Virus record (IMG/VR): IMGVR_UViG_2695420398_000010
Direction: 5' to 3' (one strand)
Origin: a virus
Lineage: Duplodnaviria; Heunggongvirae; Uroviricota; Caudoviricetes
Length of the DNA stretch: 28,240 nucleotides
Positions 4,821-28,240 of the stretch are shown piece after piece. Position 1 is the stretch's first letter, and the number at the start of each line of letters is the position of its first letter. The notes under the pieces are model-generated. The model was not told the origin of the DNA and made no database searches. It saw nothing but the letters and a program-made list of their open reading frames with translations. Position numbers and translations under genes: made by a program.

Positions 4821-6328
4821 TGGCAATTCTTGATGATGTGATTGGCGTTTTTTCACCAGGATGGAAAGCGGCAAGGCTGCGTTCCCGTGCGGTGATCCAG
4901 GCTTATGAGGCCGTAAAAACGACGCGGACACACAAAGCCCGGCGGGAAAACCGAACTGCCGACCAGTTAAGCCAGTACGGGGCCGTGTCGTTACGTGAGC
5001 AGGCCCGTTACCTTGATAACAACCACGATCTGGTTATTGGTGTATTTGACAAGCTGGAAGAACGGGTGGTGGGGAAAAACGGGATTATTGTCGAGCCACA
5101 TCCGGTATTACGCAATGGGGCCATTGCCCGTGACCTGGCTGCGGAGATTCGCACCCGATGGAGTGAATGGTCTGTCAGCCCGGAAGTCACCGGGCAGTTT
5201 ACCCGTCCGATGCTGGAACGTCTGATGCTGCGTACCTGGCTGCGCGATGGTGAGGTGTTTGCCCAGATGGTTTCCGGGCGCATAAACAGCCTGACGCCTT
5301 CTGCCGGTGTTCATTTCTGGCTGGAGGCGCTCGAGCCGGACTTTATTCCCATGACCAGTGATGAGAGCAACAGGCTGAATCAGGGCGTGTTTGTTGATGA
5401 CTGGGGGCGTCCCGAAAAATATCTGGTGTATAAAAGCCGTCCCGTATCCGGACGGCAGATGGAAACCAAAGAAGTGGATGCAGAGCGAATGCTGCATCTT
5501 AAATTTGTTCGCCGTCTGCACCAGATGCGCGGGACGTCTTTGTTGTCCGGTGTGCTGATCCGCCTCAGTGCCCTGAAAGATTATGAAGATTATGAGCTGA
5601 CTGCAGCAAGGATCGCCGCTGCTCTGGGGATGTACATCCGCAAAGGCGACGGGCAGAGCTATGAACCGGATGGTAATGGCAGCAAGGAGAATGAACGCGA
5701 TCTTACCATTCAGCCAGGCATTATTTACGACGATCTGAAACCCGGCGAAGAAATCGGAATGGTGAAGTCGGATCGTCCCAATCCTAACCTTGAAACTTTT
5801 CGTAATGGTCAGTTGCGTGCCGTGGCGGCGGGCAGTCGTCTGAGTTTTTCCAGTACGGCACGCAACTATAACGGCACTTACAGCGCCCAGCGTCAGGAAC
5901 TGGTTGAGTCTACTGATGGCTACCTGATCCTGCAGGACTGGTTTATTGGTGCCGTCACCCGCCCGATGTATCGTGCCTGGCTGAAACAGGCTGTGGCATC
6001 CGGTGTTATCAGGCTACCCCGCGATCTTGACCGTTCTTCACTGTATACCGCGGTGTATTCCGGACCGGTGATGCCGTGGATTGACCCTGTTAAGGAGGCT
6101 GAGGCCTGGAAAATCCAGATTCGTGGTGGAGCGGCGACAGAATCAGACTGGGTACGTGCTGGTGGTCGTAATCCGGATGATGTCAAACGTCGGCGCAAGG
6201 CCGAAATTGATGAAAACCGCAAGCTGGATCTGGTATTTGATACCGATCCGGCCAGTGATAAAGGAGGCAGCAGTGCCGCAACGAAACGACATGAGCCGCA
6301 GCACACCGACGACCAGTCCGAAGAATAA
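4820..6328 (+). CDS. Portal protein (lambda gpB family)
   Basis: 503 aa from ATG 4820 (ATGA overlap with the W stop); the track ORF extends upstream to 4748 but that overlaps W. Position and size fit a portal. Confidence 0.85.
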   Translation: MAILDDVIGVFSPGWKAARLRSRAVIQAYEAVKTTRTHKARRENRTADQLSQYGAVSLREQARYLDNNHDLVIGVFDKLEERVVGKNGIIVEPHPVLRNGAIARDLAAEIRTRWSEWSVSPEVTGQFTRPMLERLMLRTWLRDGEVFAQMVSGRINSLTPSAGVHFWLEALEPDFIPMTSDESNRLNQGVFVDDWGRPEKYLVYKSRPVSGRQMETKEVDAERMLHLKFVRRLHQMRGTSLLSGVLIRLSALKDYEDYELTAARIAAALGMYIRKGDGQSYEPDGNGSKENERDLTIQPGIIYDDLKPGEEIGMVKSDRPNPNLETFRNGQLRAVAAGSRLSFSSTARNYNGTYSAQRQELVESTDGYLILQDWFIGAVTRPMYRAWLKQAVASGVIRLPRDLDRSSLYTAVYSGPVMPWIDPVKEAEAWKIQIRGGAATESDWVRAGGRNPDDVKRRRKAEIDENRKLDLVFDTDPASDKGGSSAATKRHEPQHTDDQSEE

Positions 6329-8300
6329 TTCCTGGTTCAGGATGCAGGCTGGTCACCAGAGTGACGCGGATATTTATATTTATGACGAGATTGGTTTCTG
6401 GGGTGTTACAGCGAAGCAGTTTATCAGTGATCTGAATGCACTGGGCGATATCACCCACATTAATCTCCATATTAATTCACCGGGTGGCGATGTCTTTGAA
6501 GGCATCGCCATTTTTAATGCGCTTAAAACACATGGTGCGTCCATTACCGTTTATGTCGACGGTGTGGCGGCGTCAATGGCGTCGGTCATTGCGATGGTGG
6601 GAAACCCGGTCATTATGCCGGAAAACACCTTCATGATGATTCATAAACCATTTGGCTTTACGGGCGGTGATGCGGAGGACATGCGCACCTATGCCGACCT
6701 GCTCGATAAGGTTGAGGCGGTTCTGTTACCCGCTTATGCACAGAAAACCGGGAAAACCACCGATGAAATTGCTGCCATGCTGGCGGATGAGACCTGGATG
6801 TCCGGTGCCGAATGTCTGGCACATGGATTTGCTGATCAGGTAACGCCAGCCGTTAAGGCAATGGCATGTATTCAGTCAAAACGTACAGAGGAATTTAAAA
6901 AGATGCCGGAATCCATTCGAAACATGATTACTCCGCCACGCAACAGTGCTCCACGCGTACAGGATGATGAACCTGCAGCCTCCCGGACGCCAGTGCAGGC
7001 AGCAGCACCCGTGGTGGATGAAAACAGTATCCGTGCGCAGGTACTGGCAGAGCAAAAAGCGCGTGTAAACGGTATTAATGATCTGTTTGCCATGTTTGGC
7101 GGGCGTTATCAGACACTGCAGGCTCAGTGTCTTGCCGATCCTGAATGTTCGCTGGAGCAGGCCCGCGAAAAGCTGTTGAACGAGATGGGGCGCGAGTCCA
7201 CGCCATCCAATAAAAATACCCCGGCTCATATTTATGCCGGTAACGGTAATTTTGTGGGGGACGGGATCCGCCAGGCGCTGATGGCGCGTGCCGGATTTGA
7301 AAAAACCGAACGTGATAATGTCTACAACGGGATGACCCTGCGTGAATATGCCCGTATGTCACTGACTGAACGGGGTATTGGGGTTTCCAGTTATAACCCG
7401 ATGCAGATGGTCGGTGCGGCGTTCACACACAGTACGTCTGACTTCGGTAATATTCTGCTGGATGTTGCGAATAAAGCCATTTTGCAGGGCTGGGAAGATG
7501 CCCCTGAAACCTATGAACAGTGGACGCGGAAAGGTCAGTTGTCTGATTTTAAAATTGCCCATCGTGTGGGTATGGGGGGCTTCAGTGCTCTGCGTCAGGT
7601 GCGTGAAGGGGCGGAATATAAATACGTCACCACCGGAGATAAACAGGCCACTATTGCACTGGCGACCTATGGCGAGCTGTTCAGTATCACCCGTCAGGCC
7701 ATTATCAATGATGATCTGAATATGCTGACCGATGTCCCGATGAAACTGGGCCGTGCGGCGAAATCCACTATTGCCGATCTGGTTTATGCCATTCTGACGT
7801 CTAACCCGAAAATCTCCACAGATAATGTAAGTCTGTTCGATAAAGCGAAACATGCAAACGTACTGGAGAGCGCGGCAATGGACGTGGCATCGCTGGATAA
7901 AGCCCGCCAGTTGATGCGCGTTCAGAAAGAGGGGGAGCGTCATCTGAATATTCGTCCTGCGTTCGTACTGGTACCGACGGCGATGGAGTCTGTTGCTAAC
8001 CAGGTCATTCGCTCCTCAAGTGTCAAGGGGGCTGACATTAACGCCGGTATTATTAATCCGGTGAAAGATTTTGCGACCGTTATTGCAGAGCCTCGTCTTG
8101 ATGATAACAGCCAGACCACCTTCTACCTGGCTGCGTCCAAAGGCTCCGATACGATTGAAGTGGCTTATCTCAACGGTGTGGATACGCCATATATTGATCA
8201 GATGGAGGGCTTCAGTGTGGATGGCGTGACAACGAAAGTGCGTATTGACGCTGGTGTCGCGCCAGTTGATCACCGCGGTCTGGTGAAATGTACGGCGTAA
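6273..8300 (+). CDS. Fused prohead protease (ClpP-like) / scaffold-like linker / major capsid protein
   Basis: Single uninterrupted frame; probable GTG start 6273 after AAGGAGG (alternative ATG 6291). N-terminal ClpP/S14-type protease region (GVAASMAS..., MIHKP), a charged linker, and a C-terminal major-capsid-like domain. Confidence 0.8.
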   Translation: MPQRNDMSRSTPTTSPKNNSWFRMQAGHQSDADIYIYDEIGFWGVTAKQFISDLNALGDITHINLHINSPGGDVFEGIAIFNALKTHGASITVYVDGVAASMASVIAMVGNPVIMPENTFMMIHKPFGFTGGDAEDMRTYADLLDKVEAVLLPAYAQKTGKTTDEIAAMLADETWMSGAECLAHGFADQVTPAVKAMACIQSKRTEEFKKMPESIRNMITPPRNSAPRVQDDEPAASRTPVQAAAPVVDENSIRAQVLAEQKARVNGINDLFAMFGGRYQTLQAQCLADPECSLEQAREKLLNEMGRESTPSNKNTPAHIYAGNGNFVGDGIRQALMARAGFEKTERDNVYNGMTLREYARMSLTERGIGVSSYNPMQMVGAAFTHSTSDFGNILLDVANKAILQGWEDAPETYEQWTRKGQLSDFKIAHRVGMGGFSALRQVREGAEYKYVTTGDKQATIALATYGELFSITRQAIINDDLNMLTDVPMKLGRAAKSTIADLVYAILTSNPKISTDNVSLFDKAKHANVLESAAMDVASLDKARQLMRVQKEGERHLNIRPAFVLVPTAMESVANQVIRSSSVKGADINAGIINPVKDFATVIAEPRLDDNSQTTFYLAASKGSDTIEVAYLNGVDTPYIDQMEGFSVDGVTTKVRIDAGVAPVDHRGLVKCTA

Positions 8301-9568: not shown

Positions 9569-9966
9569 ACCGACATACACAAATCCGCCAGGCCGTACTG
9601 GCACGCCTTCGGGAACAGTGTGGAGACAGCGCCACGTTTTTTGACGGGCTTCCGGCATTTGTTGATGCGCAGGAACTGCCTGCCGTGGCGGTGTGGCTGA
9701 GTGATGCTCAGTACACCGGAAAAATGACGGATGAAGATGACTGGCAGGCTGTTCTGCATATTGCTGTCTTCATCCGGGCACAGGCACCGGATTCAGAGCT
9801 GGATATGTGGATGGAGAGCACCATTTTCCCGGCCCTGAATGATGTACCAGCACTTTCCGGACTCATCGACACCCTGATCCCACTCGGTTTTAACTATCAA
9901 CGTGATAATGAGATGGCCACCTGGGCGATGGCGGAAATCACGTACCAGATCACGTACACGAATTAA
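9565..9966 (+). CDS. U: Tail terminator protein U
   Basis: Matches lambda gpU blocks (GATFFDG.PA, FPAVAV.L..A.YTG, LHI.VF..AQ.PDSELD.WMES, ITY.ITY); start set at ATG 9565 (ATGA overlap with Z stop), track start is 9553. Confidence 0.85.
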   Translation: MNRHTQIRQAVLARLREQCGDSATFFDGLPAFVDAQELPAVAVWLSDAQYTGKMTDEDDWQAVLHIAVFIRAQAPDSELDMWMESTIFPALNDVPALSGLIDTLIPLGFNYQRDNEMATWAMAEITYQITYTN

Positions 9967-11167: not shown

Positions 11168-11505
11168 CGCGGGAAATGCAGTTTGTCATGCGGCTTGCCC
11201 GGGAGTTCCGGCGGGCAGACTGGCGGCGGATGCTGTCGGAAATGTCGGCCACTGAGCTTGGTGAGTGGGGCGATTATTTCCGGATGCAGAGCTTCAGTGA
11301 TGTGTGGATGGATGCGCAGTTTGCCTCGCTGAAGGCATTGATCGTGAGAATGGTGTCCGGCAGCAGTGATGCTGCGGTGGCTGATTTCAGCCTTTTACCG
11401 GAAGAGAACGGGATACCGGAGCGAACGGACGAAGAACTGATGCATCTTGGGGAAGGTATTTCCGGAGGTGTGCGTTATGGACCAGATAGCCAACCTGGTC
11501 ATTGA
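11143..11505 (+). CDS. T: T-frame segment of the G-T tail assembly chaperone, reached by -1 frameshift from G
   Basis: The -1 frame is open from 11143 and overlaps the last 8 codons of G; an A-rich slip site CCGGAAAAG sits at about 11153-11161; the ORF continues to 11505 and overlaps the H start. Confidence 0.7.
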   Translation, partial: GADAGKVLTREMQFVMRLAREFRRADWRRMLSEMSATELGEWGDYFRMQSFSDVWMDAQFASLKALIVRMVSGSSDAAVADFSLLPEENGIPERTDEELMHLGEGISGGVRYGPDSQPGH

Positions 11506-21144: not shown

Positions 21145-24100
21145 ATGGCAGTACGGATTTCAGGTGTACTGAAAGATGGCGCAGGTAAGCCGATACAAAA
21201 CTGCACCATTCAGCTAAAGGCCAGGCGCAACAGCACCACGGTGGTGGTGAACACAGTGGCCTCAGAAAACCCGGATGAAGCCGGGCGTTACAGCATGGAC
21301 GTTGAGTACGGTCAGTACAGCGTTATTCTGTTGGTGGAAGGATTCCCGCCGTCACATGCCGGGATCATCACCGTGTATGAAGATTCCCAACCCGGTACGC
21401 TGAATGATTTTCTCGGTGCCATGACGGAGGATGATGCCCGTCCTGAGGCACTGCGCCGTTTTGAACTGATGGTGGAAGAGGTGGCGCGTAACGCGTCCGC
21501 AGTGGCACAGAACACGGCAGCCGCGAAGAAGTCAGCCGGCGATGCCGGCACATCTGCCCGTGAGGCGGCAACCCATGCGACTGATGCTGCAGGCTCAGCA
21601 CGCGCAGCCAGCACGTCAGCCGGACAGGCCGCTTCGTCGGCTCAGTCAGCGTCTTCCAGCGCAGGAACGGCATCAACAAAGGCCACTGAGGCATCGAAAA
21701 GTGCTGCTGCTGCAGAGTCCTCAAAAAGCGCGGCAGCTACCAGTGCCAGTGCCGCGAAAACGTCAGAAACGAATGCTGCAGCGTCACAACAATCAGCAGC
21801 CACTTCTGCATCCACCGCGACTACGAAAGCGTCAGAAGCTGCCACCTCAGCCCGGGATGCGGCGGCTTCAAAAGAGGCGGCAAAATCATCAGAAACGAAC
21901 GCATCCTCGAGCGCCAGTAGCGCAGCTTCCTCGGCAACGGCGACAGCAAATTCTGCGAAGGCGGCCAAAACGTCCGAGACGAACGCCAGGTCTTCTGAAA
22001 CGGCAGCGGGACAGAGTGCCTCAGCTGCGGCAGGCTCAAAAACAGCGGCTGCGTCGTCTGCCAGCGCCGCGTCAACAAGTGCCGGGCAGGCCTCAGCCAG
22101 TGCCACCGCCGCCGGAAAATCGGCAGAAAGCGCCGCATCATCCGCTTCAACAGCCACAACGAAGGCTGGCGAAGCCACTGAGCAGGCCAGCGCAGCAGCG
22201 AGGTCAGCTTCCGCAGCGAAGACATCCGAAACGAACGCGAAAGCGTCGGAAACCCGTGCAGAATCCTCAAAAACGGCTGCTGCATCGTCCGCCAGTTCGG
22301 CGGCGTCATCGGCATCATCTGCGTCTGCTTCAAAAGATGAGGCGAGCAGACAGGCATCAGCAGCGAAAGGCAGCGCCAAGACGGCATCCACGAAGGCGAC
22401 AGAGGCAGCTGGCAGTGCGACGGCGGCAGCTCAGAGCAAAAGTACGGCGGAATCCGCGGCAACGCGCGCTGAGACAGCGGCAAAACGGGCAGAGGATATT
22501 GCATCCGCCGTGGCGCTTGAGGATGCGAGCACGACGAAAAAGGGGATAGTACAGCTCAGCAGTGCGACCAACAGCACTTCCGAGTCACTGGCGGCAACGC
22601 CAAAAGCCGTTAAGGCCGCGTATGACCTGGCTAACGGGAAATACACCGCACAGGATGCAACGACAGCACAGAAAGGGATAATCCAGCTAAGCAGCGCGAC
22701 CAACAGCACGTCTGAAACGCTGGCGGCAACGCCAAAGGCAGTAAAATCAGCCTATGACAATGCAGAGAAACGTCTGCAGAAAGACCAGAACGGCGCTGAT
22801 ATACCCGATAAGGGACGCTTCCTGAACAACATTAACGCGGTCAGTAAAACAGACTTTGCTGATAAGCGTGGTATGCGTTATGTGCGGGTTAACGCTCCTG
22901 CAGGTGCAACATCTGGAAAATATTACCCTGTTGTTGTTATGCGTTCTGCTGGCTCAGTAAGCGAACTGGCATCAAGGGTCATTATCACCACGGCAACGCG
23001 AACCGCAGGCGATCCGATGAATAACTGCGAGTTTAACGGATTTGTTATGCCTGGTGGCTGGACTGACAGGGGGCGTTATGCTTATGGAATGTTCTGGCAA
23101 TATCAAAACAATGAACGAGCCATCCACTCAATAATGATGAGTAATAAGGGCGATGATTTGCGCTCTGTGTTCTATGTTGATGGCGCTGCTTTCCCTGTTT
23201 TTGCGTTTATCGAAGATGGCCTGTCAATATCCGCACCTGGTGCTGATCTCGTTGTTAATGATACGACCTATAAGTTTGGGGCAACAAATCCAGCGACTGA
23301 ATGTATCGCGGCGGACGTTATCCTTGATTTTAAGAGTGGGCGTGGTTTTTATGAGTCTCATTCGTTAATCGTTAACGATAACTTGTCGTGCAAAAAACTT
23401 TTTGCCACAGACGAAATTGTAGCGCGTGGTGGTAATCAGATTCGAATGATAGGTGGGGAGTATGGTGCATTATGGCGTAATGATGGCGCTAAAACTTACC
23501 TGCTGCTTACCAATCAAGGTGATGTTTATGGTGGCTGGAATACATTAAGACCGTTTGCTATTGATAACGCAACCGGCGAACTGGTTATTGGAACCAAACT
23601 GTCCGCAAGTCTGAACGGTAATGCATTAACAGCAACAAAGCTGCAAACGCCAAGACTGGTTTCTGGTGTTGAGTTTGATGGTTCCAAAGATATTACTTTA
23701 ACCGCCGCGCATGTGGCTGCTTTTGCCAGAAGGGCAACGGATACATATGCCGATGCGGATGGTGGCGTTCCCTGGAATGCCGAATCAGGCGCTTATAATG
23801 TCACCCGCTCTGGCGACAGCTATATTCTGGTTAACTTCTATACCGGAGTCGGAAGTTGCCGGACATTGCAGATGAAGGCGCATTACAGAAATGGTGGTCT
23901 GTTCTACCGTTCTTCAAGAGACGGTTATGGTTTTGAAGAAGACTGGGCAGAAGTTTATACCTCGAAAAATCTTCCACCAGAAAGCTACCCAGTAGGCGCA
24001 CCAATCCCGTGGCCATCAGATACCGTTCCGTCTGGCTATGCCCTGATGCAGGGGCAGGCTTTTGACAAATCTGCTTACCCGAAACTCGCAGCCGCTTATC

Positions 24101-24690
24101 CGTCAGGCGTGATCCCTGATATGCGTGGCTGGACGATTAAGGGCAAACCTGCCAGTGGTCGTGCCGTATTGTCTCAGGAACAGGACGGCATTAAATCGCA
24201 CACCCACAGCGCCAGCGCATCCAGTACGGATTTGGGGACGAAAACCACATCGTCGTTTGATTACGGCACTAAATCCACGAATAACACCGGGGCGCATACG
24301 CACAGTCTGAGTGGCTCTACGGGGTCTGCCGGTGCTCATACTCATGGTAATGGTATTCGTTGGCCAGGAGGCGGCGGTTCTGCGTTAGCATTTTATGATG
24401 GCGGTGGGTTCACTTATGTCAAGGATTCACAGTATCAAGTAAGCCCGGGGACTTCTTCCAGTAGATCGTATTATCAACGTATTCAGACACAGTCAGCAGG
24501 TGCTCATACCCACTCGCTGTCTGGTACTGCAGCAAGTTCTGGCGCACATGCACATACTGTAGGTATTGGTGCGCATACGCACTCGGTTGCGATTGGCTCA
24601 CATGGACACACCATCACCGTTAACGCTGCGGGTAACGCGGAAAACACCGTCAAAAACATCGCATTTAACTATATTGTGAGGCTTGCATAA
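21145..24690 (+). CDS. stf: Side tail fibre protein Stf (mosaic, 1181 aa)
   Basis: N-terminus near-identical to lambda Stf as recalled; long Ala/Ser/Thr-rich repeat shaft; a central block not shared with lambda Stf; C-terminal His-box repeats (GAHTHS, GAHAHT, GSHGHT) and an end matching lambda Stf ([22 protein letters not shown]). Confidence 0.85.
21500..22500 (+). repeat. In-frame degenerate tandem repeats encoding the Ala/Ser-rich Stf shaft
   Basis: Reiterated motifs such as [19 protein letters not shown] and ATTKA[GS]EA at the protein level; the low-complexity GC-rich DNA creates long phantom ORFs in other frames and on the opposite strand. Confidence 0.55.
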
Positions 24691-25274
24691 TGGCATTCAG
24701 AATGAGTGAACAACCACGGACCATAACAATTTATAATCTGCTGGCCGGAACTAATGAATTTATTGGTGAAGGTGACGCATATATTCCGCCTCATACAGGT
24801 CTGCCAGCAAACAGTACCGATATTGCACCGCCAGATATTCCGGCTGGCTTTGTGGCTGTTTTCAACAGTGATGAGGCATCGTGGCATCTCGTTGAAGACC
24901 ATCGGGGTAAAACGGTCTATGACGTGGCTTCCGGCGACGCGTTATTTATTTCTGAACTCGGCTCATTACCGGAAAATGTCACCTGGTTATCCCCGGAAGG
25001 GGAGTTTCAGAAGTGGAACGGTACAGTCTGGGTGAAGGATACGGAAGCAGAAAAACTGTTCCGGATCCGGGAGGCGGAAGAAACAAAAAACAGCCTGATG
25101 CAGGTAGCCAGTGAGCATATAGCGCCGCTTCAGGATGCTGTAGATCTGGAGATTGCAACGGAAGAAGAGGCGTCGTTGCTGGAAGCCTGGAAGAAGTATC
25201 GGGTGTTGCTGAACCGTGTTGATACATCAACTGCACCTGATATTGAGTGGCCTGCTGTCCCTGTTATGGAGTAA
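24690..25274 (+). CDS. tfa: Tail fibre assembly protein Tfa
   Basis: 194 aa, same length as lambda Tfa and near-identical to it as recalled; start overlaps the stf stop (TAATG). Confidence 0.9.
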
Positions 25275-25288
25275 TCGTTTTGTGATAT

Positions 25289-25323
25289 GCCGCAGAAACG
25301 TTGTATGAAATAACGTTCTGCGG
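25289..25323. terminator. Bidirectional terminator hairpin between convergent tfa and the ea47-like gene
   Basis: CCGCAGAAACGTT-GTATGAAAT-AACGTTCTGCGG, a roughly 12-bp stem, between the two convergent stop codons. Confidence 0.5.
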
Positions 25324-25402
25324 TTAGTTAGTATATTGTAAAGCTGAGTATTGGTTTATTTGGCGATTATTATCTTCAGGAGAATAATGGAAGTTCTATG
25401 AC

Positions 25403-26635
25403 TCAATTGTTCATAGTGTTTACATCACCGCCAATTGCTTTTAAGACTGAACGCATGAAATATGGTTTTTCGTCATGTTTTGAGTCTGCTGTTGATATTT
25501 CTAAAGTCGGTTTTTTTTCTTCGTTTTCTCTAACTATTTTCCATGAAATACATTTTTGATTATTATTTGAATCAATTCCAATTACCTGAAGTCTTTCATC
25601 TATAATTGGCATTGTATGTATTGGTTTATTGGAGTAGATGCTTGCTTTTCTGAGCCATAGCTCTGATATCCAAATGAAGCCATAGGCATTTGTTATTTTG
25701 GCTCTGTCAGCTGCATAACGCCAAAAAATATATTTATCTGCTTGATCTTCAAATGTTGTATTGATTAAATCAATTGGATGGAATTGTTTATCATAAAAAA
25801 TTAATGTTTGAATGTGATAACCGTCCTTTAAAAAAGTCGTTTCTGCAAGCTTGGCTGTATAGTCAACTAACTCTTCTGTCGAAGTGATATTTTTAGGCTT
25901 ATCTACCAGTTTTAGACGCTCTTTAATATCTTCAGGAATTATTTTATTGTCATATTGTATCATGCTAAATGACAATTTGCTTATGGAGTAATCTTTTAAT
26001 TTTAAATAAGTTATTCTCCTGGCTTCATCAAATAAAGAGTCGAATGATGTTGGCGAAATCACATCGTCACCCATTGGATTGTTTATTTGTATGCCAAGAG
26101 AGTTACAGCAGTTATACATTCTGCCATAGATTATAGCTAAGGCATGTAATAATTCGTAATCTTTTAGCGTATTAGCGACCCATCGTCTTTCTGATTTAAT
26201 AATAGATGATTCAGTTAAATATGAAGGTAATTTCTTTTGTGCAAGTCTGACTAACTTTTTTATACCAATGTTTAACATACTTTCATTTGTAATAAACTCA
26301 ATGTCATTTTCTTCAATGTAAGATGAAATAAGAGTAGCCTTTGCCTCGCTATACATTTCTAAATCGCCTTGTTTTTCTATCGTATTGCGAGAATTTTTAG
26401 CCCAAGCCATTAATGGATCATTTTTCCATTTTTCAATAACATTATTGTTATACCAAATGTCATATCCTATAATCTGGTTTTTGTTTTTTTGAATAATAAA
26501 TGTTACTGTTCTTGCGGTTTGGAGGAATTGATTCAAATTCAAGCGGAATAATTCAGGGTCAAAATATGTATCAATGCAGCATTTGAGCAAGTGCGATAAA
26601 TCTTTAAGTCTTCTTTCCCATGGTTTTTTAGTCAT
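25403..26635 (-). CDS. ea47: Ea47-like protein of unknown function (AT-rich accessory gene)
   Basis: Long uninterrupted minus-strand ORF in visibly AT-rich DNA; starting at the third in-frame Met (MTKKPWERRL, GGAGAG RBS upstream) gives 410 aa / 1233 nt, the size of lambda ea47, and the 128-nt gap from tfa matches lambda; track ORF extends to 26662 (419 aa). No Walker A, HNH or HEPN motif seen by eye. Confidence 0.6.
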   Translation of the reverse strand: MTKKPWERRLKDLSHLLKCCIDTYFDPELFRLNLNQFLQTARTVTFIIQKNKNQIIGYDIWYNNNVIEKWKNDPLMAWAKNSRNTIEKQGDLEMYSEAKATLISSYIEENDIEFITNESMLNIGIKKLVRLAQKKLPSYLTESSIIKSERRWVANTLKDYELLHALAIIYGRMYNCCNSLGIQINNPMGDDVISPTSFDSLFDEARRITYLKLKDYSISKLSFSMIQYDNKIIPEDIKERLKLVDKPKNITSTEELVDYTAKLAETTFLKDGYHIQTLIFYDKQFHPIDLINTTFEDQADKYIFWRYAADRAKITNAYGFIWISELWLRKASIYSNKPIHTMPIIDERLQVIGIDSNNNQKCISWKIVRENEEKKPTLEISTADSKHDEKPYFMRSVLKAIGGDVNTMNN

Positions 26636-26811
26636 AAAACTCTCCATTTTGATAGGTTGCATGCTAGATGCTGATATATTTTAGAGGTGATAAAATTAAC
26701 TGCTTAACTGTCAATGTAATACAAGTTGTTTGATCTTTGCAATGATTCTTATCAGAAACCATATAGTAAATTAGTTACACAGGAAATTTTTAATATTATT
26801 ATTATCATTCA

Positions 26812-27126
26812 TTATGTATTAAAATTAGAGTTGTGGCTTGGCTCTGCTAACACGTTGCTCATAGGAGATATGGTAGAGCCGCAGACACGTCGTATGCAGG
26901 AACGTGCTGCGGCTGGCTGGTGAACTTTCGATAGTGCGAGTATTGAATGATTTCCAACTGTTATCGATTTTGCGTATTTTTTGCATGAGAGGATTTTTAC
27001 CTCCTCCCACCGATCCTCCATGGCTTTACGCCAGTGTCTCTGGTCTGCTATGTGCCAGGAGCAGCCATTGCTAAGTCCATCCTGTATTGTGCAGGTCAGC
27101 TCGTTTTTAAAGAGTCCGGCCATCAT
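26812..27126 (-). CDS. Hypothetical 104-aa ORF upstream of and co-oriented with the ea47-like gene (doubtful)
   Basis: Open frame of near-normal GC content with a weak RBS and tandem ATG start; no recognisable family; could be a decayed remnant. Confidence 0.15.
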   Translation of the reverse strand: MMAGLFKNELTCTIQDGLSNGCSWHIADQRHWRKAMEDRWEEVKILSCKKYAKSITVGNHSILALSKVHQPAAARSCIRRVCGSTISPMSNVLAEPSHNSNFNT

Positions 27127-27416
27127 CTTACTGGTACAGACACCATATACTTTGTGACGGTCAGGCTACATATGCACAACTCAACTTATTCATCTATTTT
27201 TTGCTTTAGCATGTCAGTGTTGCTTTCTCGTCGGCGGGTGAGCGGTGACCTGACCTGTCGATAAAGGAACGTAGCACGTTTTATGCAACACCCGCATGCG
27301 GCAGAAAATTATTGCCGAACGTTTACCCCTGTCAACAAGCTTTACTTTCTGAGGCGCGCCAGCCCGCGAGGAAAACAATCTGAACATCAAACAATTAATG
27401 ACACAAGAAATACGAT

Positions 27417-27442
27417 TAAAGATTTTTTTGTGCATGCCGATA
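27417..27442 (+). promoter_or_regulatory. Sigma-28 (FliA)-type promoter
   Basis: TAAAG-N14-GCCGATAG fits the flagellar sigma-28 consensus (TAAAGTTT-N11-GCCGATAA) in sequence and spacing; lies about 25 nt upstream of an AAGGAG RBS and ATG 27467. Confidence 0.55.
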
Positions 27443-27466
27443 GTGCTTTTTTAAAAGGAGAAATCT

Positions 27467-27799
27467 ATGTCTGTCACAATTCAGGGAAATACCTCAACCG
27501 TTATTTCAAACAACTCCGCCCCGGAAGGAACATCAGAAATAGCCAAAATCACAAGACAAATTCAGGTGCTGACTGAAAAGCTTGGGAAAATCTCATCGGA
27601 AGAGGGGATGACGACACAGCAGAAAAAAGAAATGGCTGCATTGGTACAGAAGCAAATTGAAAGCCTCAGGGCTCAACTGGAGCAGTTGTTAAGGCAGCAG
27701 GCAGAGAAAAAGAATGAAGACGCGACAGTTCAGCCTGATAAAAAAGAAGAGAAAAAAGACGATACAAATACCGCTGGCACCATTGATATTTACGTCTAA
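27467..27799 (+). CDS. flxA: FlxA-like small coiled-coil protein
   Basis: 110 aa with a Ser/Thr-rich N-terminus, central heptad-like coiled-coil and Lys/Glu-rich C-terminus; size and architecture match prophage FlxA-family proteins and it carries a sigma-28-type promoter; strong RBS. Confidence 0.55.
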   Translation: MSVTIQGNTSTVISNNSAPEGTSEIAKITRQIQVLTEKLGKISSEEGMTTQQKKEMAALVQKQIESLRAQLEQLLRQQAEKKNEDATVQPDKKEEKKDDTNTAGTIDIYV

Positions 27800-27814
27800 G
27801 TGACAGCCGTATTG

Positions 27815-27836
27815 TGGCCCTCATCGGGCCACTTTT
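27815..27836 (+). terminator. Terminator-like hairpin after the flxA-like gene
   Basis: TGGCCC-TCATC-GGGCCA followed by a short T-rich tract (CTTTTC). Confidence 0.4.
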
Positions 27837-28240
27837 CGCCATCAGCCTTTTCTTTAAAGACATATTATCTTTGTATCATTTTTGATAGTTAACATTACAA
27901 GATATAAGTAATGGACGCACTCCCAATTAGTCTATTTAAATCGCCACGAGTTTAACTGACAACCCATGATCAATTATGAATTGCAACTATTTCTGTAGTC
28001 ACTTTTGTGGGGACAGTCCACAAAACTGCCAACTTCCGCTTCTTGCTCATAACAGACATAAACTTCAGTTATGGCATAAAGGTATGCATGCTGGGTGGGG
28101 AAAGTATGAAGGAAAAGAAGACTGCTGCGCCGTTTGTCGTCACGTTTATCTTCATTGGCTATGCAAGTCGTAATACAAGGTGGGACAAAACTGAGACACA
28201 TAAGGCCTCGCAATGGCTTGCAAGGCTTTACATGTTTTGA

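Follow-up and report, generated by a model that had tools for sequence, protein, structure and literature searches.

In a window of 28,240 nucleotides of viral DNA (IMG/VR record IMGVR_UViG_2695420398_000010, Caudoviricetes; "the window" denotes this whole stretch), a single AT-rich gene lies on the minus strand directly after the tail fiber assembly gene tfa. This gene is ea47 itself, a textbook lambda gene that is already catalogued in Pfam and in PHROGs. Lambda is the best-studied temperate phage, yet the genes of its b region have been without an assigned role for fifty years, and ea47 has been deleted by many laboratories as a neutral cargo site. In this study, we examine the coding sequence, mobility, family distribution, genomic neighbors and predicted structure of ea47, and weigh the roles that these would fit.

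The program-made list of open reading frames holds a minus-strand frame of 419 codons at 25403..26662; at the base composition of that strand, the chance of so many codons without a stop is about 4e-16. It converges with tfa (24690..25274, plus strand), and the long plus-strand late operon faces the opposite way, which bears out a preliminary description of this DNA that had placed a gene of about 1.25 kb after tfa and against the late operon. Methionines stand at codons 1, 6 and 10 of the frame. A protein of 410 amino acids (aa), counted from the third of these, had been proposed, and the homologs agree, as all 48 of them (alignment A1) start at the M-x-x-KPWERRL position; the lambda and RefSeq annotations also give the 410-aa form. 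Since the homologs start at the third methionine (26635) and a GGAG lies 6 nucleotides (nt) before that ATG, the true coding sequence is therefore 25403..26635. The gene and the features around it are as follows.

25403..26635, minus strand: ea47 coding sequence, 410 aa plus the stop codon (25403-25405), placed by the list of open reading frames, the identity with lambda, the homolog starts and PHROG 19262.
26636..26662, minus strand: in-frame upstream extension of nine codons (MQPIKMESF), probably untranslated, judging from the homolog starts and the annotated 410-aa form; it contains the GGAG.
26642..26645, minus strand: Shine-Dalgarno-like GGAG, 6 nt 5' of the ATG at 26635, read from the sequence.
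26687..26714, minus strand: sigma-70-like promoter candidate, TTGACA (26714-26709), 16-nt spacer, TATCAC (26692-26687), 52-79 nt 5' of the start codon.
25290..25323, no strand assigned: inverted repeat lying between tfa and ea47, which converge; its stem of 12 bp has a single-base bulge (A25298) and its loop measures 9 nt, from RNA folding.
24490..26975, no strand assigned: block shared with other elements (stf 3' end, tfa, hairpin, ea47 and about 340 nt upstream), from pairwise blastn of the window against five loci.

The Ea47 protein has a computed mass of 48.1 kDa and an isoelectric point of 8.0. No transmembrane segment was found, in keeping with the first impression from the sequence, and the highest Kyte-Doolittle mean over 19 residues is 0.85. 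The gene had also been described as far more AT-rich than the structural genes, which the composition bears out: in windows of 500 nt the GC fraction is 0.31 across 25501-26500 versus 0.49-0.63 across 1-25000, and the gene itself has 31.5% GC (27% at third codon positions) as compared to 54% for positions 1-21000, which hold the late genes. The separate acquisition proposed on that ground is supported both by this difference and by the nearest relatives outside E. coli, which are found in Citrobacter (73%) and in Vibrio, Shewanella and Photobacterium (about 62-64%).

Positions 25200-26900 of the window correspond to lambda 22483-24183 at 99.9% nucleotide identity, and the same DNA is present in HK629, HK630, 4W and the imm21/imm434 hybrids. 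The protein is identical to lambda Ea47 (NP_040606) over 410 of 410 residues, with one synonymous nucleotide change in the gene. It matches PHROG 19262 ("unknown function") at E 2.8e-295 over residues 1-410 of 410, and its homologs carry the precomputed Pfam family PF26900, "Phage_lambda_Ea47", a name without a function. The preliminary description had compared the gene with lambda ea47 in position and size, and the likeness proves to be exact: the protein is the same, it lies in the same place after tfa on the opposite strand, and the hairpin and 5' region are shared as well. The window is nevertheless a different lambdoid prophage and not lambda. Homology between the two spans 24592-27078 (lambda 21875-24362) and then ends. 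Beyond it lies flxA (27467-27799), a FlxA-like gene on the plus strand, and, further on in the best-matching genome (E. coli PS1Phumofeces1), a "4-fold beta flower" gene adjoining LysR/paoD. Lambda instead has ea31/ea59 and attP as its downstream context, and the window has neither ea31 nor ea59.

The ea47 gene is carried in a small self-contained cassette of tfa, the hairpin, ea47 and the roughly 340 nt of its 5' region. The shared block recurs from about 24490 onward at 96-99% identity in lambda, in three other E. coli prophages and in an IncI2 plasmid, and different genes follow it in each, the right-hand breakpoints falling between 26975 and 27078. In every context examined (lambda, this prophage, strains NT1F10, 1436 and B1-56, and the IncI2 plasmid, which has a lambdoid tail module), ea47 stands directly after stf-tfa on the opposite strand, and the gene upstream of it varies from ea31/ea59 to flxA, a lipase-family gene or a DinI-like gene. 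The prophages that carry ea47 are inserted at differing chromosomal sites, at least four in number. Among 5426 complete E. coli genomes, ea47 DNA is present in 121, always at 99% identity or more, and the query of 24600-28240 (stf end, tfa, ea47, flxA) has matches in 5334. The gene is thus present in some and absent from others of a set of related prophages, and its composition differs from that of the flanking phage genes, as would be expected of a moron.

The end of homology with lambda, at window position 27078 (lambda 24362), lies 27 nt before a misc_recomb feature at 24389-24390 of the lambda record (NC_001416), and the block breaks off on its right-hand side at points spread over 26975-27057 in the other E. 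coli prophages. The breakpoints at 26975-27078 point to a recombination-prone junction upstream of ea47.

The family to which Ea47 belongs is large and lies mostly outside the phages. A word-indexed search returned 454 relatives, and an exhaustive profile search returned 1313 cluster representatives at E≤1e-3 (851 at E≤1e-10), with clusters defined at 50% identity. Lambda DNA contamination led to the removal of about 20 of 80 "related loci" and of several "plasmids" of 48.5 kb. Nearly all members are 400-450 aa long and are matched end to end. They occur in Enterobacterales, Vibrio, Shewanella, Aeromonas, Beta- and Alphaproteobacteria and a few other phyla, and divergent copies are carried on plasmids of Acidithiobacillus, Streptomyces, Nocardia and Arthrobacter. 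In contrast, a tblastn search of 50,697 phage records matched only lambda, HK629, HK630, 4W, E26 and O276, all of them at least 99% identical. Because the family is large in bacteria and near-absent from phages, Ea47 appears from these searches to be a cellular protein whose gene lambda picked up from bacteria. Conservation this strong, across more than 1000 clusters, also excludes the idea that ea47 is a decayed, non-functional relic.

Expression of the gene bears on its role. The space between tfa and ea47 had been described as holding a perfect hairpin terminator. The hairpin is real, since RNA folding of the surrounding 71 nt (25275-25345) reaches -25 kcal/mol on the plus strand (z -5.7 versus shuffles) and a fold forms on the minus strand too. 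The rest of the description is overstated because the stem has a one-base bulge, no T-run follows it (TTAGTTAG after the stem on the plus strand, CATATCAC on the minus strand) and a terminator consensus scan called no site at this hairpin. It is possible that the hairpin at 25290-25323 acts as a bidirectional transcription stop.

On the 5' side, the TTGACA-16-TATCAC element carries a promoter annotation in the record of phage HK629, and the 165 nt 5' of ea47 are identical at 164-165 of 165 positions between lambda and four E. coli prophages with different upstream genes. A promoter scan did not call this candidate because its -10 hexamer lacks the final T. The best promoter-like match of the region is a different one, TTGACA-16-AATAAT (11/12, 27335-27308, minus strand), which lies between ea47 and the FlxA-like gene and is directed at ea47 from about 670 nt 5' of its start codon. 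Expression in the lysogen, which had been thought probable, has modest published support, in that a microarray study found the ea47 transcript raised at least 2-fold in lambda lysogens (PMC1151598), and the sigma-70-like element that travels with the gene fits this despite its weak -10. As we infer from the known lambda map, the att split separates this end of the prophage from pL, and lysogenic expression of ea47 must therefore be autonomous. The low GC (31.5% versus 54%), the co-traveling 5' region, the presence in 121 of 5426 genomes, the varying downstream genes and the lysogen transcript together argue for reading ea47 as a moron.

Previous work gives ea47 no required part in the lambda life cycle. 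It is non-essential in a CRISPR interference map of lambda (PMC10695390) and has been used as a neutral insertion site (PMC11980383; PMC3945230); from two of these studies it is dispensable for growth, lysogeny and induction (PMC10695390, PMC11980383). A yeast two-hybrid screen reported the pairs U-Ea47 and N-Ea47, the former with two vector combinations (PMC3224144). These results leave room for an alternative in which Ea47 is an early phage protein that aids lytic growth of lambda in natural hosts, by counter-defense or by take-over, and is dispensable in laboratory K-12 in the way that many anti-defense genes are; the two-hybrid pairs with N and U would fit such a role. So would the name "Ea" itself, which derives from its detection as an early product of read-through from pL into the b region. 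The distribution of the family speaks against this alternative. Save for lambda and its near-identical relatives, sequenced phages essentially lack the family, and it is widespread in bacterial chromosomes and plasmids and occurs in an integron cassette, where an anti-defense protein has no obvious use. At 410 aa and three domains, the protein is also large for an inhibitor, and in the prophage its gene is no longer coupled to pL and brings a 5' region of its own. We consider a lytic role improbable.

The surroundings of the bacterial relatives were compared by all-against-all blastp of the four neighbors on either side at 55 genuine loci. Ea47 is always a single gene with no conserved partner, and the only recurrent neighbor family is a serine recombinase (resolvase) of about 190 aa, found in 7 of the 55 loci at variable positions. 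Serine recombinases have been reported to mark defense loci, and DUF5677 to be among the domains enriched near them (2025 preprint, PMC12632615). In Vibrio misgurnus, Ea47 forms one cassette of a chromosomal integron, with VCR-like attC repeats at 9842-9893 and 11230-11281 of locus L005. A Vibrio parahaemolyticus prophage has Ea47 between its integrase and the Lamassu genes LmuA (E 5e-119) and LmuB (E 9e-208), in Shewanella it adjoins AbiLi/AbiLii, and a Pectobacterium integrase island surrounds it with FRG, AbiTii, a SIR2-like gene, Hcp, DUF5677, Barstar and a UvrD helicase. When the 148 immediate neighbors were matched to Pfam and PADLOC, five resolvases, three integrases, three LmuB, two DRT reverse transcriptases and two AriA were recognized, and further matches included PLD nucleases, AAA_15/21 and SocA/Panacea.

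Lambda itself offers a similar picture. Its Ea59 matches PtuA1, the Septu ATPase (E 5e-184), and PDC-M01A (E 4e-201) in PADLOC, and its HNH protein Ea31 matches PDC-M01B (E 6e-113), so that two genes adjacent to ea47 in lambda appear to form a Septu-like system. The two genes lie at 5610-8074 of locus L002 (lambda 24509-26973). These matches suggest that the lambda b region is a small defense island. Although ea59 and ea31, encoding the Septu-like ATPase and the HNH nuclease, are neighbors of ea47 on the same strand, their products are unrelated to Ea47, and Ea47 does not depend on them, because neither is found in the window, and three of the four other E. coli contexts examined lack them as well. 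The suggestion that ea47 sits in an accessory and defense hotspot thus gains weight from several genomes, through Lamassu, AbiL, SIR2-like/AbiTii and Septu-like neighbors.

A few relatives carry additional domains. Rare long ones of 850-920 aa (P0180, P0232, P0240) have a SEC-C zinc motif near residue 450 together with TPR/TPR-S repeats, both C-terminal to Ea47; the TPR-S scores are at or below the Pfam cut-off (28.7 versus 27.6 and 19.6 versus 27.6). Relatives of 575-585 aa have an added SEC-C only. One locus beside an integrase (L104, 7068-10422) encodes a fusion in which DUF5677 is N-terminal to Ea47, followed by a second DUF5677 gene. In Pectobacterium, the DUF5677 gene is separate, adjacent and convergent (L003, 11439-12272), which is a second independent link between DUF5677 and Ea47. 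DUF5677 is merely an occasional fusion or neighbor, as it was rejected as a homolog of the Ea47 N terminus (hhalign probability 0.1).

The same neighborhoods can be read in two other ways. One is that Ea47 is a host or element accessory, such as a stress, metabolic or regulatory enzyme or a binding protein, that rides on mobile DNA and is unrelated to phage defense. Integron cassettes and islands hold adaptive genes of many kinds, many Ea47 copies have no defense neighbor, no known defense model matches Ea47, and its predicted fold has no hint of the nuclease, NADase, protease or pore that are the usual defense effectors. This reading is rather unlikely, as it sits poorly with defense systems being immediate neighbors in independent lineages, with ea47 adjoining integrases at prophage ends, and with the fusions to TPR-S, a repeat whose Pfam "sensor" name comes from conflict systems. 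The other way is to take Ea47 for a selfish, addiction-type or toxin-like module that stabilizes its own DNA and has no dedicated anti-phage role. The single-gene cassette in a chromosomal integron would be in keeping with it, as would the SocA/Panacea antitoxin, HigB and Xre/MbcA antitoxin genes near some loci and the Barstar of the Pectobacterium island. An addiction module appears very improbable, since no conserved small gene lies adjacent to act as antitoxin, and lambda lysogens and ea47 replacements are made routinely with no toxicity or instability reported.

Conservation and predicted structure divide the protein into three parts, given below in codon order. Conservation was taken from 88 diverse members of 22-61% identity, and the secondary structure from an AlphaFold2 model.

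26360..26635, minus strand: codons 1-92, a bundle of N-terminal helices whose conservation far exceeds that of the rest.
26081..26359, minus strand: codons 93-185, middle part (beta-beta-alpha-beta-alpha) with conserved S96, R150, W152 and E161, from the AlphaFold secondary structure and conservation.
25406..26080, minus strand: codons 186-410, a variable linker (186-252) and then a C-terminal alpha/beta domain with conserved H274, K301, E325, W327 and E347.

Of the 29 positions with a conservation of 90% or more, 20 fall within residues 1-92, among them R9, Y24, R31, R42, T45, Q49, K52, W61, Y62, D73, W78, R83, N84, K88, G90 and D91, and residues 186-252 and 381-410 are variable. Conservation in residues 1-92 with a variable middle and C terminus is what one would expect if a conserved effector were coupled to a specificity part that varies. 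The model, built from 49 sequences, is confident (pLDDT 89.5, pTM 0.87). It has N-terminal helices at residues 5-22, 27-50, 58-71 and 74-89, and a C-terminal domain in the order alpha-beta-beta-alpha-beta-beta-beta-beta-alpha.

Searches with the sequence and the model returned no relative of assigned function. NCBIfam gave no match, and phmmer against PDB sequences, together with profiles of 49 and 88 sequences, gave nothing usable, the sole match being ElaA at E 0.59. In Pfam-A, a sub-threshold match to vRNAP_dom (E 0.035, 14.9 bits versus a cut-off of 27) was judged to be chance, and Mvb12, which matched weakly in 7 of the 88 members (E≥0.037), was rejected. Foldseek with the full model against the PDB gave a best E of 0.064 and query-normalized TM scores of 0.08-0.16, and the proposed fold relatives GAF, TRPML2 and kinesin were discarded. 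The C-terminal alpha/beta domain matched no nuclease fold, PD-(D/E)xK included. Some three quarters of Ea47 are without a solved structural relative. The view that ea47 has no established function therefore holds for Pfam-A, NCBIfam, PADLOC and PDB sequences, with PHROG 19262 and PF26900 being functionless names, and a confident match to a characterized protein with a routine phage role was sought by sequence and by fold without one being found.

The N-terminal bundle bears a possible resemblance to the HEPN superfamily. Helix 4 holds R83-N84-x3-K88, with R83 invariant and N84 and K88 near-invariant, at the spacing of the HEPN R-x4-H motif, and the N-terminal domain might accordingly be a divergent HEPN ribonuclease, a mechanism that would be compatible with a conflict protein. 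The defining histidine of the R-x4-6-H motif is, however, replaced by lysine, and no histidine is conserved in residues 1-250. Nor does any HEPN family match Ea47 or the 88 relatives in Pfam at E≤1, even weakly, and no HEPN profile match was found in the PDB. Because no histidine is conserved and no HEPN profile matches, what is left is a resemblance without membership. Ea47 differs in the same respects from HepT toxins, the HEPN domains of Csm6/Csx1 and the C-terminal domain of KNTases, having neither their catalytic histidine nor similarity at the profile level; generic bundles match its bundle equally well or better, and about 320 further residues have no counterpart in the superfamily. We give a divergent HEPN ribonuclease a slim chance. 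The preliminary description had seen no ATPase, nuclease or HEPN motif, which is correct for all canonical motifs, the HEPN-like bundle without its histidine being the nearest approach.

The reading that we tentatively prefer, with somewhat less than even confidence, is that Ea47 is a stand-alone conflict protein of bacterial origin, conferring anti-phage immunity as a single gene by defense, abortive infection or exclusion, and captured by lambda as a moron. In its favor are the autonomy of the gene, the cellular character of the family, the defense-gene neighbors, the fusions, the concentration of conservation in residues 1-92, the moron-like traits and the dispensability of ea47 for lambda. 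In such a role, Ea47 would be a cytoplasmic protein of 48 kDa. We infer a working site in the nearly invariant N-terminal bundle, which contains many Arg, Lys, Asp and aromatic residues (R9, Y24, R31, R42, Q49, K52, W78, R83-N84-x3-K88 and D91), and which R150, W152 and E161 may complete; most plausibly, this putative site would bind or cleave RNA or a nucleotide. The variable alpha/beta half at the C terminus would control or target the activity, for example by sensing an invader, and the SEC-C and TPR-S parts of the rare long relatives would extend this sensing role. In the prophage, out of reach of pL, the gene would be expressed from its own weak sigma-70-like promoter, and after induction or infection Ea47 would presumably also be made as an early protein by pL read-through.

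Known systems offer partial parallels to such a conflict protein. Prophage defense morons, such as lambda RexAB and the genes of P2/P4-type hotspots, share with ea47 an AT-rich composition, an antisense position at the prophage end, a 5' region of their own, dispensability and patchy occurrence, but Ea47 has no sequence or fold similarity to any catalogued defense protein. TPR "sensor" repeats have been described for conflict systems based on nucleoside triphosphatases (NTPases), and in the long relatives the Ea47 module stands where the effectors of TPR-S/SEC-C conflict proteins usually sit. The difference is that a STAND or other NTPase domain is missing and that lambda Ea47 lacks the SEC-C/TPR extensions.

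Several observations weigh against a conflict role. PADLOC-DB 2.0 models match Ea47 with no family at E≤1, and weak Pfam matches over the 88 divergent members include no recurring family. The neighborhood evidence is qualitative, with crude gene calling in the 55 loci and no enrichment test against a genomic background, and many Ea47 copies lie among ordinary genes, an example being a lone Aeromonas insertion among housekeeping genes. The literature searched on ea47, on ea31/ea59 and on PF26900 yields no functional study and no experiment that links Ea47 to phage resistance. To our knowledge, decades of work with b-region deletion phages have reported no phenotype, and the classical early lytic status of Ea47 would equally fit a role in lytic growth. 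As for expression in the lysogen, the -10 of the candidate promoter, TATCAC, is poor, and the microarray signal is only 2-fold or more (PMC1151598).

A bolder form of this reading is that Ea47 founds a widespread, unrecognized class of single-protein anti-phage effectors with a new architecture, in which a non-canonical HEPN-like helical effector is joined to alpha/beta sensors that lack a solved relative, and that the lambda b region is a defense island of two systems, ea47 and the Septu-like ea59/ea31. The breadth claimed for such a class would be the roughly 1300 clusters at 50% identity, from Proteobacteria to Actinobacteria plasmids. We regard this as possible but doubtful.

New with respect to earlier accounts of ea47 are the finding that the family is distributed among bacteria and not among phages, its occurrence as an autonomous single gene and the copy in an integron cassette, as well as the defense-gene neighbors (including the Septu-like ea59/ea31), the TPR-S/SEC-C fusions and a confident model without structural relatives. 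If Ea47 is an immunity module, lambda lysogens would hold a third defense system besides RexAB and the Septu-like Ea59/Ea31, and engineered lambda vectors that lack ea47-ea59 would differ from the wild type in phage-phage competition. A family of more than 1000 bacterial clusters would in that case gain a function and a new effector fold. A long-standing small question on ea47 can now be put directly to a cheap and concrete experiment.

In the course of the family search, copies 95-100% identical to lambda ea47, mostly 100%, were seen in assemblies of Chromatium, Leeuwenhoekiella, Pseudomonas, Neobacillus, Oceanobacillus, Streptomyces and Fusobacterium. In many of these, the contig names give a coverage of about 1-2.5x, with about 10x in one Pseudomonas contig. 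Lambda ea47 is also present in 48.5-kb "plasmids" of Salmonella, Stenotrophomonas and Paenibacillus and in "Campylobacter phage CJLB-4". These copies in unrelated assemblies look like contamination of public records by lambda control DNA; the lambda-like entries are loci L017-L025, L028-L032, L034, L036, L054, L058 and L059 and homologs H10, H115 and H124-H126.

Two further observations concern the tail fiber genes of the window. The stf gene (21145-24690, plus strand) is intact at 1181 aa, whereas laboratory lambda has the frameshifted orf-401/orf-314. It contains an Ala/Ser/Thr-rich low-complexity stretch of about 1 kb, at about 21500-22500, with an AT skew of 0.35-0.42 and a GC fraction of 0.60-0.63, and because of this stretch there are long spurious open reading frames in the other frames and on the opposite strand. 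Within the 3' end of the tfa coding sequence lies a full-length match to the Rfam family IS009 (RF02111) at 25033-25231 on the plus strand (221.6 bits, E 2e-55), a candidate small RNA model that overlaps a tail fiber assembly gene, a gene that is itself repeated in many E. coli prophages.

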